In this document: positions 11,587 to 19,287 of the stretch, in pieces
Numbering within the stretch: the first letter of the stretch is position 1
Layout of the letters: each line of letters starts with the position of its first letter
Source: a virus
Virus genome (UHGV): UHGV-0298370
Length of the DNA: 19,287 nt
Reading direction: 5' to 3' (one strand)
Notes under the pieces: model-generated
Databases searched by the model: none
The model's input: only the letters and a program-made list of their open reading frames with translations
Told to the model about the DNA's origin: nothing
Made by a program: the position numbers and the translations under genes

Positions 11587-13353
11587 ATGAACACCACACT
11601 GACACCCGCAGATCTCGATCCCCGTCGGCAGGCCATGCTGCTGTACTTTCAGGGATACCGCGTAGCCCGCATTGCTGAAATGCTGGGCGAGAAAGTTGCA
11701 ACCGTTCACAGCTGGAAAAAACGCGACAAGTGGGGTGACTATGGGCCGCTGGATCAGATGCAGCTCACCACCGCCGCACGCTACTGCCAGCTCATTATGA
11801 AGGAGCACAAAGAAGGGAAAGATTTCAAAGAAATTGACCTGCTGGCGCGCCAGTCGGAGCGCCACGCGCGGATCGGCAAGTTTAACAATGGCGGTAACGA
11901 AGCCGACTTAAACCCTAACGTCGCCAACCGCAACAAAGGCCCGCGCCGTCAGCCGGAAAAGAATGTTTTCACCGATGAACAGATTGAGAAGCTGGAAGAA
12001 ATTTTCCATTCCTCCATGTTCAACTACCAGCGCCACTGGTGGGAAGCCGGAAAAACCAACCGCATCCGCAACCTGCTGAAGTCACGCCAGATCGGCGCGA
12101 CCTTTTACTTTGCCCGTGAAGCCCTGATTGACGCCCTGCTTACCGGACGTAACCAGATTTTCCTTTCTGCCAGTAAGGCACAGGCTCACGTCTTTAAGCA
12201 GTACATCATAGACTTCGCCAAAGAAGTCGAGGTGGAGCTGAAAGGCGATCCGATGGTGCTTCCTAACGGAGCCACGCTTTACTTCCTCGGCACCAATGCC
12301 CGCACGGCCCAGAGTTATCACGGCAACCTGTATCTGGATGAATATTTCTGGATACCGAAATTCCAGGAGCTGCGCAAAGTGGCTTCCGGTATGGCTATTC
12401 ACAAAAAATGGCGACAAACCTATTTTTCCACGCCATCCAGCCTGACACACAGTGCTTATCCGTTCTGGTCCGGTGCGCTGTTCAACCGTGGGCGCAACAA
12501 GGCCGACAAGGTGGACATCGACCTGTCCCACAGCAATCTGGCCCCCGGCCTGCTGTGCGCAGACGGGCAATACCGCCAGATAGTCACCGTGGAAGATGCG
12601 GTGCGCGGCGGCTGTAACCTGTTCGACCTTGACCAGTTGCGCATGGAGTACAGCCCGGACGAATACCAGAACCTGCTGATGTGCGAGTTTGTGGACGATC
12701 TCGCGTCCGTGTTCCCGCTCAGCGAGCTGCAGGCGTGCATGGTGGACAGCTGGGAAGTCTGGACCGACTTTCATGCACTGGCTCTGCGCCCGTTTGGCTG
12801 GCGCGAAGTGTGGATCGGTTATGACCCGGCAAAAGGTACGCAAAACGGCGACAGCGCCGGATGCGTAGTGGTGGCACCGCCAGCCGTGCCTGGTGGTAAG
12901 TTCCGCATTCTTGAGCGTCACCAGTGGCGTGGGATGGACTTCCGCGCCCAGGCTGACGCCATCAAAAAACTGACCGAGCAGTACAACGTGACCTACATCG
13001 GCATCGACTCGACAGGTGTCGGCCACGGGGTTTACGAGAACGTGAAAGCGTTTTTTCCAGCCGTCCGGGAGTTTGTCTATAACCCCAATGTTAAAAACGC
13101 CCTGGTACTCAAGGCCTACGACATTATCAGCCACCGCCGTCTGGAGTTTGACGCCGGACACACCGACATAGCGCAGTCATTCATGGCAATCCGTCGCGCC
13201 ACCACCGCGAGCGGCAACCGCCCAACCTATGAAGCCAGCCGCAGCGAAGAAGCCAGCCACGCCGATCTGGCCTGGGCAACGATGCACGCACTGTTTAACG
13301 AACCGCTGCAGGGCGAATCCGCCAATACCAGCAATATTGTGGAGATTTTTTGA
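11587..13353 (+). CDS. P: terminase ATPase (large) subunit gpP
   Basis: 588 aa; N-terminus MNTTLTPADLDPRRQAMLLYFQGYRVARIAEMLGE... and body match P2 gpP; divergent from O as in P2. Confidence 0.95.
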   Translation: MNTTLTPADLDPRRQAMLLYFQGYRVARIAEMLGEKVATVHSWKKRDKWGDYGPLDQMQLTTAARYCQLIMKEHKEGKDFKEIDLLARQSERHARIGKFNNGGNEADLNPNVANRNKGPRRQPEKNVFTDEQIEKLEEIFHSSMFNYQRHWWEAGKTNRIRNLLKSRQIGATFYFAREALIDALLTGRNQIFLSASKAQAHVFKQYIIDFAKEVEVELKGDPMVLPNGATLYFLGTNARTAQSYHGNLYLDEYFWIPKFQELRKVASGMAIHKKWRQTYFSTPSSLTHSAYPFWSGALFNRGRNKADKVDIDLSHSNLAPGLLCADGQYRQIVTVEDAVRGGCNLFDLDQLRMEYSPDEYQNLLMCEFVDDLASVFPLSELQACMVDSWEVWTDFHALALRPFGWREVWIGYDPAKGTQNGDSAGCVVVAPPAVPGGKFRILERHQWRGMDFRAQADAIKKLTEQYNVTYIGIDSTGVGHGVYENVKAFFPAVREFVYNPNVKNALVLKAYDIISHRRLEFDAGHTDIAQSFMAIRRATTASGNRPTYEASRSEEASHADLAWATMHALFNEPLQGESANTSNIVEIF

Positions 13354-14060
13354 TGCCCCCAATCCCAACTAACCTCATGACTATCGCGGGACTTCCGGTG
13401 GATAGCTTTTTCTTTGCTTACCAGTATGAGTGGAACACTGGCCCAAAGAGTAGAAACCGTGTACTCACAAAAATGCGCCAGGCAGGCGCGGATTTCTTTT
13501 TTTCCTATGAAGCCCTGAACGATGCACTGCATACCGGGCGTAACCAGATTTTCCTCTGCTGCAGCACAGCATCTGCGCAGGCAATCAAAGCCTGTGTATC
13601 AGCATTCTTAAGCCAGGCCGCAGCTTATACGCACACTGGAAAAATAAAATCAGGCAAAAGTCATCTGGAGCTTCCGAATGGTGCAGTAATTTATTTTACC
13701 GACCTCAGCAGTCTCACCTCCGCACTCAGTGGAAATGTTTACGTGTCAGAGTATGCCTGGAGTGAATCACCGAGAAATATGATTGCCATCGCTAAAGGGA
13801 TTTCTATGCACGCACACTACCACGCCACCTACTACACCACTCCCAGCCCTAACCCAGAGGCACGGCAGGAATATAAAAAGCTATGCAGAAACAACAGCGT
13901 AACCAGCATGGTGTTCACCGCAGATGACGCAGCAGCATCTGGAGCAATGTTGTTTACTGATAACTGGCTGAACGATATGAAAAAAGAATTATCAGAAGAG
14001 GACTGGAAAATGCTGTTTATGTGCGAATGGCCTCTCGCTAGCAAGGAACTGGCAGAATGA
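13353..14060 (+). CDS. terminase-ATPase-like paralog (truncated, diverged copy of gpP central region)
   Basis: ATG at 13353 overlaps the P stop (TGATG) and its stop overlaps the Q start (ATGA). Protein aligns by eye to gpP residues ~140-400 (FAYQYEWNTGPKSRNR / FNYQRHWWEAGKTNRIR; EALNDALHTGRNQIFL / EALIDALLTGRNQIFL; GNVYVSEYAW / GNLYLDEYFW). A 24-nt stretch at 13532-13555 is 23/24 identical to 12141-12164 in P. Confidence 0.6.
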   Translation: MPPIPTNLMTIAGLPVDSFFFAYQYEWNTGPKSRNRVLTKMRQAGADFFFSYEALNDALHTGRNQIFLCCSTASAQAIKACVSAFLSQAAAYTHTGKIKSGKSHLELPNGAVIYFTDLSSLTSALSGNVYVSEYAWSESPRNMIAIAKGISMHAHYHATYYTTPSPNPEARQEYKKLCRNNSVTSMVFTADDAAASGAMLFTDNWLNDMKKELSEEDWKMLFMCEWPLASKELAE

Positions 14061-15085
14061 GCAAACGTAAAAACACCAAGCAGGTAACAGTTGATCACGA
14101 CACAAAACCAAGCAACGGCCCAACGGCTGAGGCTTTCAGCTTTGGTGATCCCATCCCCGTGCTGGACCGCCGCGAACTGCTGGACTATGTGGAATGCGTA
14201 CAGATGGATCGCTGGTATGAGCCGCCCGTCAGCTTTAATGGACTGGCGCGCACCTTCCGCGCCGCCGTGCATCACAGTTCCCCGATTGCAGTAAAGTGCA
14301 ACATTCTGACCAGTACCTATATCCCTCATCCGCTGCTTAGCCAGCAGGCTTTTTCGCGTTTTGTGCAGGACTATCTGGTATTTGGTAACGCCTACCTGGA
14401 GAAACGCACGAACCGCTTTGGTGAAGTTATCGCCCTTGAGCCAGCTTTGGCAAAATACACCCGACGCGGATTAGACCTGGATACCTACTGGTTTGTGCAA
14501 TACGGTATGACAGCCCAGCCGTATCAGTTCACGAAAGGCAGCATTTTTCATCTGATGGAACCGGACATCAACCAGGAGATCTACGGCCTGCCAGGTTATC
14601 TTTCTGCCATCCCGTCAGCCCTGCTCAACGAGTCCGCCACACTGTTCCGCCGTAAGTATTACATCAACGGCAGCCATGCAGGTTTCATCATGTACATGAC
14701 CGATGCCGCGCAGAACCAAGAAGATGTGAACAACCTCCGCAACGCAATGAAAAGCGCCAAAGGGCCAGGCAACTTCCGCAACCTGTTTATGTACTCTCCT
14801 AACGGCAAAAAGGACGGGCTTCAGATTATCCCGTTGTCAGAAGTCGCGGCGAAGGATGAGTTTCTGAATATCAAGAACGTGAGTCGGGACGACATGATGG
14901 CGGCACACCGTGTGCCGCCGCAAATGATGGGGATAATGCCTAATAATGTTGGGGGCTTTGGAGATGTAGAGAAGGCGAGTAAAGTATTTGTACGTAATGA
15001 ATTATTGCCATTGCAAAAAAGATTACAAGAAATAAACAATTTCATAGAAGAAGGTGTTATTGAATTCCAAGAATACCATTTCTAA
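14057..15085 (+). CDS. Q: portal protein gpQ
   Basis: 342 aa; ...EAFSFGDPIPVLDRRELLDYVECVQMDRWYEPPVSFNGLARTFRAAVHHSSPI...NESATLFRRKYYINGSHAGFIMY...NGKKDGLQIIPLSEVAAKDEF... matches P2 gpQ. Confidence 0.95.
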   Translation: MSKRKNTKQVTVDHDTKPSNGPTAEAFSFGDPIPVLDRRELLDYVECVQMDRWYEPPVSFNGLARTFRAAVHHSSPIAVKCNILTSTYIPHPLLSQQAFSRFVQDYLVFGNAYLEKRTNRFGEVIALEPALAKYTRRGLDLDTYWFVQYGMTAQPYQFTKGSIFHLMEPDINQEIYGLPGYLSAIPSALLNESATLFRRKYYINGSHAGFIMYMTDAAQNQEDVNNLRNAMKSAKGPGNFRNLFMYSPNGKKDGLQIIPLSEVAAKDEFLNIKNVSRDDMMAAHRVPPQMMGIMPNNVGGFGDVEKASKVFVRNELLPLQKRLQEINNFIEEGVIEFQEYHF

Positions 15086-15087
15086 TT

Positions 15088-15118
15088 AAAAAAAAGGGAG
15101 GCAACCTCCCTTTTTTTT
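15088..15118. terminator. bidirectional rho-independent terminator between convergent Q and cargo gene
   Basis: A8-GGGAGG-CAA-CCTCCC-T8: 6-bp GC stem, 3-nt loop, flanked by A-run and T-run so it reads as a terminator on both strands; overlaps the TAA of the minus-strand cargo gene. Confidence 0.75.
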
Positions 15119-16883
15119 AAACATTATCGTATAACTCTTGTATTTTCGTTGGATTTGCAAAAAATCTTGCCGGATAGGCATTCGGGTAATTATCTTCAAT
15201 GTACTCTTCAGCACGTTGAATTAATGCACTTAATTCTTCGGAAAGATTTTTTTCATCTGGAACAAGAATTTCTGAGCTATTATGTATCCCAGAAACGTTG
15301 CTCAATAGTACAGACGCATAGTATCTATTACCATGCGTAATAATTAAATGCTTGCGACTATGGGTCGTTTTATCTACTGATAGTAATGTTTTACCGATCA
15401 ACTTATCTATAACTCTAAAATGTAGAACAGTATTGATAAGTTTTAAACCACTTAATCTTGGATTGAAAATAGTTTTATATAGAGAGCCTTCAAAATTTTC
15501 AAAAAACCTACCGCGATTTGATTTTAGTGTCGATACAACCGTATTATTTTTACTTAAACATGCGAGTGCATTGAGCGCCTCATCCAAGTCAATGACTTTC
15601 GTATTTGTCTGTGAATGATCTTCATCTGTTCTTAGTAACTGATATTGATATCCTTCAAGCACTAACTCCCTTGCCAATCTATGTTGATCTGCCTGCTGCG
15701 ATGCAAAATCTCTTCCCAATACTCTATTTTGGAAATTGTTAGCTTTTGTAATTGCATTTGCAGTTAAATTATCAGTATCATCATCTATAACAATGAATCT
15801 AGCTGGCACTTTGAGTCTATATATGTTTTCACCAAGCGCATCTTTACATGCGCCAATACTACTGACTGTTTGTGCACCATTAATGACACTTACATCACGA
15901 AAATCAAAAATCCCTCTCTCTATATTAGGAGCTGCGTTTCGTCTATGAGGAACAACTTCCTTAACCAGTACAGTAATCCCATTATTATAAAACCAAAACA
16001 TATCAGGATTATCTATAGCTGTCTTTTTTATTTCCTCATTCACTTCTGTTTTACCAAGCATATTCCTTATGTTTTTTGTAAATAATCGAGCACCATGCTC
16101 TTCCCACCATTCTGCAACTTGATCACCACTAATAGCCCCGTAAAAAGCTTGATATGGTTCATTCAAAAATCCAAAACGCTCAATTTCAACCCTGTTAAGA
16201 TCAATTTGATTTCGAGAGCCATTCTGTAACCAATGCATCATATCTTCAGAGGATATTAAATGAACCTGAAATCCCCAGTTCTCTTTAGGCTCATCCTCAG
16301 GTGTAAAAGCTGCAGCGTTTAATTGATATTGCCATTCCCGCATATCATTTAATATTTCCTCTGCAGCACCTTTTTTACCTGTATGCGCCATCGCAAAGAT
16401 GAACTTGTATTCAAAACTACTTAAAGCCGCACTTATTTCCCCGCTTTTATTTTGCAATATGGAATCAAATAATTCGTATCTTTCACTTTGTAGCTTCTCA
16501 CAAGCATCCTTAAAACACATAAAATCGGCTCTTGTCCAAGTGCCGTTTCCCGATTGGTGAAATTTTGATTGAACAACAACAACGATTTTTTCGTTATGGT
16601 TGATTGCTATTCCATCTATACCACCATCTTCACTACTATCACATACAGACTCCCCTGCATACTTATCATCCACACATCCTAACTGATACATAGTGAATGC
16701 AGCTAAAGCCCTGCTAGCCATTTTTACATCATAGTCTGCTTGGCCTGGTGCACACTCTCTTTTATGGATGAATTCTTCATATCTCTTACGTAATACAGAT
16801 CCTAGCCTCTGAGCCATAACCTGTGCTGTCGCAGGTGCAGCAATAGCATTATCTTCAAGCCGAATATCAGTTACAAAAGCCAC
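15117..16883 (-). CDS. Mrr-type nuclease-domain protein with AIPR-like architecture (candidate abortive-infection/defence protein)
   Basis: Long AT-rich ORF; start uncertain (TTG 16940 without SD, GTG 16883 with GGAGGG SD, ATG 16817). N-terminal motif SEDGGIDGIAINHNEKIVVVVQSKFH resembles the Mrr catalytic PD-(D/E)xK core (D-G-G-I-D ... Q-x-K). Size and layout are reminiscent of AIPR-family proteins; not verified by HMM. Confidence 0.65.
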   Translation of the reverse strand: MAFVTDIRLEDNAIAAPATAQVMAQRLGSVLRKRYEEFIHKRECAPGQADYDVKMASRALAAFTMYQLGCVDDKYAGESVCDSSEDGGIDGIAINHNEKIVVVVQSKFHQSGNGTWTRADFMCFKDACEKLQSERYELFDSILQNKSGEISAALSSFEYKFIFAMAHTGKKGAAEEILNDMREWQYQLNAAAFTPEDEPKENWGFQVHLISSEDMMHWLQNGSRNQIDLNRVEIERFGFLNEPYQAFYGAISGDQVAEWWEEHGARLFTKNIRNMLGKTEVNEEIKKTAIDNPDMFWFYNNGITVLVKEVVPHRRNAAPNIERGIFDFRDVSVINGAQTVSSIGACKDALGENIYRLKVPARFIVIDDDTDNLTANAITKANNFQNRVLGRDFASQQADQHRLARELVLEGYQYQLLRTDEDHSQTNTKVIDLDEALNALACLSKNNTVVSTLKSNRGRFFENFEGSLYKTIFNPRLSGLKLINTVLHFRVIDKLIGKTLLSVDKTTHSRKHLIITHGNRYYASVLLSNVSGIHNSSEILVPDEKNLSEELSALIQRAEEYIEDNYPNAYPARFFANPTKIQELYDNV

Positions 16884-16985
16884 AGTCCCTCCATAAAGAC
16901 ATCTGGTACAACTCAATGCTGGGAATAGTGCACATTTCAATGAGATAAATCCACTAATAATCTAGGATTTATGAGTTAGCGCGCG

Positions 16986-17004
16986 CTCGTATCCCCGCCA
17001 CGCC
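16986..17004 (-). other. putative cos site (cohesive-end sequence) of the P2-like phage
   Basis: Minus-strand sequence GGCGTGGCGGGGATACGAG followed by CGCGCGC resembles the P2/186 cohesive-end sequence as I recall it (P2: GGCGAGGCGGGGAAAGCAC TGCGCGC); orientation is correct, with the 5' end pointing toward Q. Depends on my recollection of the P2 cos. Confidence 0.45.
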
Positions 17005-17053
17005 TGCCCGCTTTGTGTAGTGGTTTTCATGCAGGTGCCTGATCCACGCAAAA

Positions 17054-17073
17054 GCCCGCCAGTTCTGGCGGGC
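17054..17073 (-). terminator. probable rho-independent terminator downstream of the DUF2971-like gene
   Basis: GCCCGCCAG-TT-CTGGCGGGC hairpin; on the minus strand it is followed by TTTTGCG; lies ~70 bp past the stop of the minus-strand gene 17140-18258. Confidence 0.5.
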
Positions 17074-17139
17074 CTTAGCAAAAACGATCCTCAAACGGTC
17101 ATGCAAATTCAGGCAGCATAGGCATGCACTGTTGTTAGG

Positions 17140-18258
17140 TTAGTTCGTAATGCCAATTTCCTTCAAAACTTTAGCCATTTCCGTCTGACTTAACTTGTTC
17201 CTGAACAAAGGGAAATTTTTCATTTTTTCCGCTCGTTGCCCTTTTGAAATAGTAATCTTTCCTGATGCTGATAACTCAGAGTCAAAAAAATAACATATTG
17301 TTGAATTTGAATTCTCCATATTTGACTTGATACAATTCCATATGCTTTCTTTTTTCATTTCACACATTCTAGGACCAAAAATGATCCCTTTAACAACATT
17401 AGCATCATGATGAAAAATATGTCCAATATTTCGATTTACGCGTCTTTGAACATGCCGCTCACTCCCTATTCCTGCATTTGCCTCTGGAATAAACATTCGA
17501 TATTCAGCTTCATATCTCCAAAATCTATTTTTAGTTAAAAATAACTCTGCAACATTTGCGCTTGGGTCTAGAAGTGAAACCTCTTTAGCCTGATTACTAT
17601 ATTTTATTTGCTTAACTGGAAAATTAAATTTATCTGATGAAAATAAATTTTCTCTTAGCTTCATTCCAGGATGTGGCACGCCATTAATATTAAAATCCTG
17701 CGTTTCATAAATCACAACACAACCACTAAAGCCTGCAGCATAATGCGCCCACATCATACGATCTAACGCATTAGCTGAAAATGACACACTGAATACTGCA
17801 GGAACTATTTTCCTATACAACCTTTCTTTGATACTGTTCTCGCAAAGTGAGACCAAAAATTGGCGTGGTTCAGGAATATTCCCATAAATAGCGGAATTAA
17901 TCACATTGATAGGTAGTAAACCATCATTTATGATCTTACGTATCTCATCAACGTGTGAGTCAAACAGGCTATCTAATGACTCAATGCTACTTTTTATTTT
18001 TTTTCCTCTAAAAATACGATTCAATCCCTTATGTATCTTCAAATTACTCAAATCTAATATGTGACTCAAATTTTCATAGGATTTATCGCAAGGAGAACGC
18101 AATAAAATATCCCATAATTTCAATTTATTATCAAAACGATAATCTATATTGAGATCATTAGGATCATTCAATTGCGCAGGAGCGGAAAAATATAATTCAT
18201 TATAACGAATAGCTTTCTCGAAGAAGAAGTCCGGACGGTAATACTTGAAAAGATACAT
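17140..18258 (-). CDS. DUF2971-like protein (candidate defence-associated protein of unknown mechanism)
   Basis: 372 aa, AT-rich; N-terminus MYLFKYYRPDFFFEKAIRYNELYFSAPAQLNDPND matches the hallmark DUF2971 N-terminal pattern (KY..........LYFS.P..xNDPxD); ATG start; terminator-like hairpin downstream. Confidence 0.7.
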   Translation of the reverse strand: MYLFKYYRPDFFFEKAIRYNELYFSAPAQLNDPNDLNIDYRFDNKLKLWDILLRSPCDKSYENLSHILDLSNLKIHKGLNRIFRGKKIKSSIESLDSLFDSHVDEIRKIINDGLLPINVINSAIYGNIPEPRQFLVSLCENSIKERLYRKIVPAVFSVSFSANALDRMMWAHYAAGFSGCVVIYETQDFNINGVPHPGMKLRENLFSSDKFNFPVKQIKYSNQAKEVSLLDPSANVAELFLTKNRFWRYEAEYRMFIPEANAGIGSERHVQRRVNRNIGHIFHHDANVVKGIIFGPRMCEMKKESIWNCIKSNMENSNSTICYFFDSELSASGKITISKGQRAEKMKNFPLFRNKLSQTEMAKVLKEIGITN

Positions 18259-18712
18259 GACATTACCTATAACATTGCAATATTAACAACCGTATGAAAA
18301 CGGTTTGATTGTATTGATAATATCCTATTCTGCATATACCACAGTGTAAAGATTAATTTTAAATACCATATCCAACAGTAAATCATGTATCGACCGCCAG
18401 ATAAGAAGCTTTTGAAAAACTTGGACAATAATTAATCAAAAGGTAAGAGATACTCTTCAAATACATGACGTTGGCTTCCTCTTTCGTGATAACTATCAAG
18501 ACCAAGTCCATTAGATAATGGACATCAAATATTCCAAGTCAATCCAAGAACAATCATCATAAGCTCTTCCCATCCTGTATCCTCTATCTCACTCTTTTGG
18601 ACATTGAAAGAAGCCCCTCTGACCGGGAATGATTGTTTCCAGCGTTTGACCACGATATACAATATGATATTTGATGTCTTTTGATCAGATGGCTAACGCC
18701 TCGCACAGCTCG

Positions 18713-18852
18713 TTGTTCAACCTTGCTGACGCCAGAAGCAAGTTCAGACGCCAGCAACGTTTCTTAATGCAGCCAGCTGTCGTCTTCCCACACCTTCTGC
18801 ATAATTTTCATCACTTGTTTTCTTTCTTCGTCCAGTTGCAGTCCGGTCAGTT
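18713..18852. repeat. direct repeat copy A (140 bp, truncated 3' gene fragment)
   Basis: 140 bp with 2 mismatches to 19148-19287; contains a minus-strand frame ending ...LTGLQLDEERKQVMKIMQKVWEDDSWLH-stop (stop 18765-18767) that is closed by a stop ~38 codons upstream, so this copy is a fragment. Confidence 0.7.
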
Positions 18853-19147
18853 CAACACCATTAGAGCTACCTTTACGGGCTGCAAATTACCTTTTGGGAT
18901 TTGTGATAGATACGAAAATCCTATTAGATGCTTGTTAGACCGGAAGCGCCACTTCGAACGAAAAGTAATGGCCACTTATGCCGGTTTAAAAGCCTTAACC
19001 TTGTATAGTTATTTGAATATTTTCTTCATTAACACCAAAGTATAGGGCTAGCCCTGCTTTTGCCTCCTGAAGTGTTAACGGCTTAACTACATTTTCTTCT
19101 TCTTCTTCGTACTCATCACCCCCCATGACTAATGCCCCACTAAACTA

Positions 19148-19287
19148 GTTGTTCAACGTTGCTGACGTCAGAAGCAAGTTCAGACGCCAGCAACGTTTCT
19201 TAATGCAGCCAGCTGTCGTCTTCCCACACCTTCTGCATAATTTTCATCACTTGTTTTCTTTCTTCGTCCAGTTGCAGTCCGGTCAGT
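19148..19287. repeat. direct repeat copy B (140 bp, continues beyond window end)
   Basis: Matches 18713-18852; truncated by the window edge. Confidence 0.7.
19200..19287 (-). CDS. 3' end of a gene entering from beyond the window (C-terminus ...LTGLQLDEERKQVMKIMQKVWEDDSWLH)
   Basis: Open minus-strand frame running off the window edge, stop codon TAA at 19200-19202; identity unknown. Confidence 0.4.
   Translation of the reverse strand, partial: LTGLQLDEERKQVMKIMQKVWEDDSWLH

Follow-up and report, generated by a model that had tools for sequence, protein, structure and literature searches.

The cos-proximal hotspots of P2 and P4 are a major reservoir of anti-phage systems. The P2 hotspot is located between gpA and gpQ, beside cos; the mechanism by which its content is exchanged was left speculative (Rousset et al. 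2022, PMC9122126). Small remnants of recombination have been noted in P2-like hotspot loci (NAR 2026, PMC13586616), and the texts of PMC9122126 and PMC13586616 do not mention dinI, microhomology or a duplicated backbone end. The locus described here is part of a 19,287-nt stretch of DNA (UHGV-0298370, hereafter the window) that represents a P2/186-like Escherichia coli prophage. It resembles the P2 cos-proximal hotspot (the old/tin locus) in that it extends from the replication/dinI genes to the portal gene around a cos-like site, and in that its variable cargo has matches to defence models (AbiU-like AIPR, PDC-S31, PDC-M03). It differs from the published hotspot in that one exchange scar has been mapped with single-base precision and in that two slots, one on each side of cos, swap independently.

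Microhomology-mediated template switching (FoSTeS/MMBIR) and alternative end-joining with filler DNA are known classes of rearrangement, and phage mosaicism is reportedly generated by homologous or relaxed homologous recombination in conserved flanks. The scar is similar to products of FoSTeS/MMBIR or alternative end-joining in having a direct duplication that encloses an inverted segment from ~300 nt away, overlaps of 1-2 nt and an imperfect re-priming match; here a strong stem-loop additionally lies 34 nt before the first switch. In contrast to FoSTeS/MMBIR, this case is known from one product alone, and the later homologous crossover belongs to neither mechanism. The scar also resembles phage mosaicism, with an allele switch between two parental lineages (X, the E. 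coli A41 type, and Y, the ARL09/232 and MSB1_9D type) inside a 119-nt stretch of the dinI tail, whereas homologous exchange alone leaves neither a duplicate nor an inverted filler. We consider it probable that the repeat is a real, non-functional, chimeric recombination scar at the dinI-side edge of the hotspot in a two-lineage hybrid, formed by a homologous crossover together with an illegitimate rearrangement.

The best relatives of the window are the prophages 1008S13, MSB1_9D, CH4794 and ARL09/232, which are 99.4-99.9% identical over 88-90% of its length. The gene order in ARL09/232 is terminase, an extra Terminase_6N ORF, portal, AIPR, DUF2971, a DinI-like gene, a 62-aa ORF and the replication endonuclease gpA. 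In the closest relatives dinI, the 62-aa ORF and gpA follow one another directly; gpA is outside the window. The portal gene (14057-15085) is on one side of the hotspot and the dinI tail (19200-19287) is on the other. Two cargo genes, both on the minus strand, lie between them. The first encodes an AIPR-family protein (15117-16883; Pfam) in the slot between cos and portal, and matches the PADLOC AbiU model (6e-25). The second encodes a DUF2971 protein (17140-18258; Pfam) in the slot between dinI and cos, and matches the PADLOC model PDC-S31 (3e-23), PDC models being candidate families. A cos-like region (16966-17130) separates the two slots. The P2 cos sequence is absent from the window at up to 3 mismatches; a looser scan identified the core of this region, GGCGTGGCGGGGATACGAG, on the minus strand at 17004-16986, which matches the phage 186 cos sequence at 15 of 19 positions. 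This 165-bp region is conserved in Fels-2 and in Klebsiella, Yersinia and E. coli P2-like phages. The AIPR and DUF2971 slots have been swapped independently among relatives, with breakpoints at ~16975-17130. Since the cos-like site lies between the two cargo genes, AIPR (AbiU-like) and DUF2971 (PDC-S31-like) would be at opposite ends of the linear virion genome if the putative cos is used.

In the phages 500465-1 and Kp4845-2 the dinI gene abuts the cos region directly. The DUF2971 cargo module therefore comprises 17131-18691 on the minus strand, that is, the DUF2971 gene and its upstream region, and the edge of the island falls in the proximal copy of the repeat described below. Backbone gives way to variable cargo at ~18691/18692, inside that copy. 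An earlier reading of the window from its sequence only had proposed the repeat as a probable island boundary, and the repeat does sit exactly at the backbone/cargo transition, the empty site being that of the phages with dinI next to cos.

A repeat search of the window identified two direct repeats of 163 nt at 18689-18851 and 19125-19287 (94% identity, 10 mismatches), which aligned to each other by BLAST with E = 1.65e-69. They constitute one direct-repeat family, with two copies at a start-to-start distance of 436. Base-by-base comparison located the mismatches at 18692, 18697, 18701, 18703, 18705, 18706, 18708, 18711, 18722 and 18732. Eight of the ten fall in 18692-18711, the remaining two are 18722 and 18732, and the 119 nt from 18733 to 18851 have no difference between the copies. 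The sequence-only reading had described a 140-bp repeat with 2 mismatches and a spacing of ~435 bp, which is exact for 18712-18851. It had also stated that a longer tandem array or a known repetitive element would count against it. There is no third copy in the window, TRF reported no tandem array (its only report is a (TTC)5 run), and neither the stem-loop nor the region had an Rfam match at E <= 1. In comparisons with intact dinI genes the proximal dinI fragment extends to 18878, so the full repeat is probably ~188-190 nt long, and the distal copy is cut by the end of the window, as had been noted.

Each copy contains the last 28 codons and stop of a DinI-like gene on the minus strand, a stem-loop of 15-19 bp and ~30 nt of backbone. 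This bears out the earlier description of a gene end of ~28 codons and a hairpin per copy, although the hairpin is longer than the CTTGCT/AGCAAG core that was first seen. The translations of both copies end identically in LTGLQLDEERKQVMKIMQKVWEDDSWLH and a stop (18764-18766 and 19200-19202). The distal copy (19125-19287, minus strand) consists of a motif (19125-19154), a stem-loop (19155-19197) and the DinI-like 3' end, and has the A41 or X-type allele. In the proximal copy the backbone tail downstream of dinI (18689-18763, minus strand), made up of the conserved motif (18689-18718) and a stem-loop (18719-18761), has the ARL09 or Y-type allele. It is preceded by a truncated DinI-like 3' fragment (18764-18878, minus strand) which, aligned to intact dinI from ARL09/232 (locus L001, 7765-7998) and from A41, comprises 37 codons and a stop. 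With no start codon of its own and with in-frame stops on its upstream side, beyond the junction, this fragment is dead, as the sequence-only reading had also recognised.

Assignment to the DinI family was made with the intact homologue from A41 (77 aa), whose DNA is 100% identical to the distal copy over the part present. It matches PF06183 over its full length (E = 7e-23, 81 bits, cutoff 24.2), and it also matches phrog_189, 'RecA filament binding protein DinI'. The window itself holds the C-terminal 28 codons (distal) or 37 codons (proximal, dead) of the family, and the 28 in-window residues are identical to the intact homologue. As the window ends inside the distal copy, an intact dinI beyond its end and an X-type early region are only inferred. 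The DinI family (PF06183) has a relative in the Tum antirepressor of phage 186. In the loci L001, L002 and L004 a conserved 62-aa ORF (phrog_698) directly precedes the DinI-like gene, beyond the position at which the window ends, and the 77-aa protein covers positions 71-148 of the 151-position phrog_189 profile. The 62-aa ORF and the DinI-like gene may together correspond to a longer Tum-like protein of phage 186 that has been split in two.

The stem-loops at 18719-18761 and 19155-19197 have predicted folding energies of -30.5 and -29.5 kcal/mol (z = -3.9 for the distal one). The stem is G+C-rich, as in an intrinsic terminator. On the dinI-sense strand there is no U-tract directly 3' of the stem, where the sequence is GGUUGAACAACGAG, and the stem-loop after dinI was not listed by a terminator consensus scan. 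For these two reasons we regard the element as a conserved stem-loop rather than a proven terminator. Among 27 distinct alleles (loci L011-L090, dinI stop +5 to +47) six of the ten stem pairs covary. Compensatory changes span four or more sequence types, and the G-U pairs point to the dinI-sense strand as the RNA. The compensatory changes and the strand of the G-U pairs imply a role of the stem-loop at the RNA level. The stem-loop is followed by GTTGAACAACGAG..GAGGCGTTAG, and cargo diverges beyond this motif; at 18689-18718 it is present as the reverse complement, GTTGAACAACGAG..GAGGCGTTAGCC. This conserved element may stabilise an RNA 3' end, act as a Rho-dependent signal or bind a protein.

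When aligned by local BLAST to two reference loci, the region resolved into three blocks. The first (18301-18878) matches ARL09/232-type loci and includes cargo flank, motif, stem-loop and the 37 dinI codons. The second is a filler (18877-19121, minus strand) that is 100% identical over 245 nt to L002 6001-6245 and to L003, both of A41 type. The third (19121-19287) consists of dinI and 79 nt downstream of it, and its 167 nt are 100% identical to L002 5931-5765. The filler is an inverted remnant of the gene for a 176-aa protein (hyp176, WP_000246368.1, phrog_37247): 18995-19121 corresponds to its last 42 codons and stop and 18877-18994 to 118 nt of 3' flank. In A41, hyp176 occupies the dinI-cos slot, the one taken up by DUF2971 here, and the filler has the opposite strand to the A41 arrangement relative to dinI. 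All five hyp176-type loci (L002, L003, L011-L013) have hyp176 convergent with dinI. The protein had no Pfam, PADLOC or meaningful PDB match; its sole match, phrog_37247, is a family of unknown function. In the A41-type hotspot (L002 6119-8857, and L003) hyp176 in the dinI-cos slot is accompanied, across cos, by a HipA_C-like kinase and a HIRAN protein, which constitute the PADLOC candidate system PDC-M03A/B. Of 5,426 complete E. coli genomes, just 8 carry this combination of cargo.

Direct repeats on either side of a 273-bp insert might be taken for a mobile element (an IS, a MITE or an integron-like cassette) with a long target duplication, or for site-specific recombination at the stem-loop, whose imperfectly palindromic sequence differs from one cargo type to another, somewhat like attC. 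However, the insert derives from a known gene nearby, there are no inverted repeats at the filler ends, and a repeat of at least 163 nt is far too long for a target-site duplication. Furthermore, neither junction is in the stem-loop, no Rfam or repeat-family match was obtained, and no recombinase was identified among the cargo genes annotated here. The points at which cargo types diverge are also scattered, and one stem-loop allele occurs with 21 cargo types (see below). We give this explanation almost no weight.

The two junctions of the filler have very small overlaps. At the first (J1, 18877-18900) identity to dinI extends to 18878 and identity to the filler begins at 18877, an overlap of 2 nt (GG). 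J1 is followed by an imperfect patch in which 15 of 17 positions match (AATTACC / TTTGGGAT). Among local alignments of the two parental regions this patch ranks first, with a score of 22 against 16.8 +/- 2.2 for shuffles, but as extended homology it is not significant. We rejected a degenerate inverted dinI relic at the position of J1 in A41, the homology being insignificant. The second junction (J2, 19119-19124) is in a C6 run, where the filler ends at 19121 and the A41 sequence downstream of dinI starts at 19121, giving a 1-nt overlap; 69 nt of A41 (L002 5932-6000) are missing there. In the A41-type parent the source of the filler lies 70-314 nt from the first breakpoint. Both breakpoints thus have micro- rather than extended homology, and the inverted insert was templated nearby and is flanked by the duplicated dinI tail, which are features of template switching.

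A simpler history might be a tandem duplication, in which an ancestor already had J2, with the hyp176 3' fragment co-oriented after the dinI stem-loop, and an unequal crossover at the J1 patch was followed by acquisition of Y cargo. Direct repeats 436 bp apart would be expected from such a duplication, one junction per step suffices, and J1 coincides with the place where the partner sequences match best locally. On the other hand, a 36-mer spanning J2 had 0 matches in three contig collections (genome_contigs, viral_contigs and metagenome_contigs), so a J2-bearing ancestor was not found there, and in all five hyp176-type loci the gene is convergent with dinI, with a 69-nt spacer. An earlier illegitimate inversion would still be required, which makes this history no more economical, and we consider it improbable.

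Comparison with the parental lineages indicates where each part of the locus came from. The proximal copy and everything leftward of it (DUF2971/PDC-S31, the cos-like site, AIPR/AbiU-like and portal) match the ARL09/232 type. The segment 18301-18876 matches ARL09/232 and all DUF2971-type loci, in which a single dinI is at the equal distance of 505 bp, and 18601-18853 is 100% identical to all DUF2971-type loci. The proximal copy has ARL09-type alleles at 18722, 18732 and 18689-18711, while A at 18860 and A at 18875 are A41-type alleles. Base 18854 (A) is private, being in neither parent. This change of allele type within the proximal copy places a homologous crossover in the ~119-nt stretch that is identical between the copies (18733 to ~18853). 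As there are only two diagnostic sites on the X side, and as another locus, L017, combines a Y-type hairpin with A at 18860, the evidence for this crossover is no more than suggestive. The prophage therefore appears from its sequence matches to be a hybrid of lineages X and Y. Lineage Y would have been the source of the late genes, portal, AIPR, cos-like region, DUF2971 and the backbone tail to ~18853, and lineage X the source of the intact dinI and presumably of the early genes beyond the window.

A plausible series of events can be proposed. DNA synthesis or repair on an X genome would have proceeded across dinI and its stem-loop as far as the position 79 nt beyond the stop. A first switch, with the 1-nt overlap of J2, would then have moved synthesis to the opposite strand 314 nt further on, from where 245 nt of the 3' end of hyp176 would have been copied backwards. 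A second switch (J1) into dinI at about codon 40, with the nascent end at the 15/17 patch that ends in 2 exact nt, would have duplicated the dinI tail. Finally, a homologous crossover with a Y genome in the ~119-nt identical stretch would have attached the Y cargo; this crossover may have been part of the same break-induced replication event, possibly its start, or may have occurred later. The product would be the same if two phage copies with different breaks had been connected by microhomology end-joining and the 245-bp filler had been captured in the process. Template switching and end-joining with filler capture are indistinguishable from sequence alone, and we infer a mechanism of one or the other kind from the inverted filler and the small overlaps. 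The order and number of events are beyond checking because the layout is a singleton, without intermediate or sibling.

This history bears on the claim of the sequence-only reading that the repeat is the scar of a cargo exchange by recombination within a conserved flanking gene. That part of the claim is supported by a DinI-like backbone gene (PF06183), by copies from two lineages and by the scrap of A41-type cargo between them. The claim needs amendment in that an equal homologous crossover leaves no duplication: an illegitimate event is also needed because of the inverted 245-bp filler and the two junctions with overlaps of 1-2 nt. Nor is a duplicated 3' end an expected signature of exchange, as had been proposed, since a second dinI tail is present at 0 of the 88 other dinI loci and in no complete E. 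coli genome.

The layout was found only in the window. None of the 5,426 complete E. coli genomes spans at least 80% of 18500-19287 (the best match, of the single-dinI type, covers 69%), the phage records searched lack the duplicated-dinI layout, and a look-up of DUF2971 returned single-dinI layouts only. The DUF2971 module is beside a single dinI in all seven places read, and the filler occurs only within hyp176, in 8 genomes. An arrangement that is unique across all collections searched raises the concern of an assembly or sequencing artefact, for example if the source strain had both an X-type and a Y-type prophage and a contig chimera arose across the shared dinI tail. There are up to 4 matching places per E. 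coli genome, the end of the window falls within the repeat, a frequent stopping point of short-read contigs, and the switch from Y-like to X-like sequence is in a 119-nt identical stretch, where an assembly graph could cross. However, a graph chimera would follow the dinI of X, whereas the window jumps at 18877/18878 and at 19121 with overlaps of 2 and 1 nt, and neither jump has identity of k-mer length. Long-read chimeras are expected as fold-backs (a sequence followed by its own reverse complement), and the structure here is not of that form. The private base at 18854 also fits neither parent. We therefore think an artefact unlikely.

J2 creates a 43-codon ORF (18995-19126, minus strand; MGGDEYEEEEENVVKPLTLQEAKAGLALYFGVNEENIQITIQG) whose ATG is from A41-type sequence downstream of dinI and is in frame with the acidic run and C-terminal 42 residues of hyp176. 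The duplication might be useful if stem-loops in series insulate DUF2971 from dinI read-through, or if this ORF is expressed. The stem-loop is indeed conserved, with compensatory changes and dinI-sense G-U pairs, and the chimeric ORF is open and has an ATG. Against this, a singleton shows no sign of selection, the ORF has no clear ribosome-binding site, and a single stem-loop is present in the seven DUF2971-type places and in each of the four best whole-window relatives. The exact products of the junction-spanning ORFs (43, 124, 123, 118 and 42 aa), the 43-codon product included, are absent from the protein collection. A useful duplication is thus very unlikely. The second stem-loop and the chimeric ORF are by-products; we found no evidence of a present function of the scar, and nothing in it needs one.

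Hotspot content varies among near-identical prophages: the 89 dinI loci compared carry 43 different types of cargo. A single nucleotide allele of dinI was seen beside 12 of these types, and a single allele of the stem-loop beside 21. Population structure confounds the comparison of per-site dinI polymorphism with cargo type, as does the restriction to loci with >= 99% DinI identity, and this comparison is used here only qualitatively. In the 43 cargo types divergence sets in at the stop codon or further on, near +40-60 or +220, the last cluster being read as loci with an empty right slot in which divergence begins after cos. This pattern fits repeated exchange by recombination in or around the dinI tail and is at odds with crossover at one specific site. 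We rejected site-specific cassette exchange at the stem-loop on the scatter of divergence points and the 21 cargo types of one stem-loop allele. It is conceivable, though we doubt it, that the stem-loop and motif actively drive cargo turnover in P2-like hotspots. The stem-loop, as a replication obstacle or single-strand structure, would then provoke template switching or breaks beside cos, and the window would be a rare mis-resolved intermediate; if so, the exchange mechanism of phage defence hotspots would become experimentally tractable.

The hotspot and the presence of recombination remnants in it were already known; what is added here is a resolved case that names the dinI-tail homology and an illegitimate component. 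It is a base-resolved example in which the dinI-side exchange appears to have used the last ~120 nt of dinI as homology, and in which illegitimate, microhomology-type events at the same spot can leave pieces of the previous occupant behind. Because none of the 88 other loci is alike, the scar is one anecdote of ordinary biology rather than a rule, and its value is as a pointer to a systematic k-mer search or a co-induction experiment.

Further features of the window were observed away from the dinI side. Positions 1-2083, annotated with tail or tail-collar fibre genes, include a second mosaic boundary at the left end, where the relatives that are 99.4-99.9% identical elsewhere stop matching at ~1058 or 2083. 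Between the large terminase gene (11587-13353) and the portal gene there is a 236-aa ORF (13350-14060, plus strand) with a Terminase_6N (ATPase N-terminal) domain alone (E = 3.7e-16). It is present in ARL09/232, L004, L006, L008 and L010 and absent from L005, L007 and L009, in which terminase abuts portal. It may be a moron, for example a truncated terminase copy acting as a decoy, or may be related to packaging or satellites. Between the convergent stops of portal and AIPR, the 31 bp at 15086-15117 form a symmetrical A8-GGGAGG-CAA-CCTCCC-T8 hairpin which, although unlisted by the consensus scan, resembles a bidirectional intrinsic terminator.
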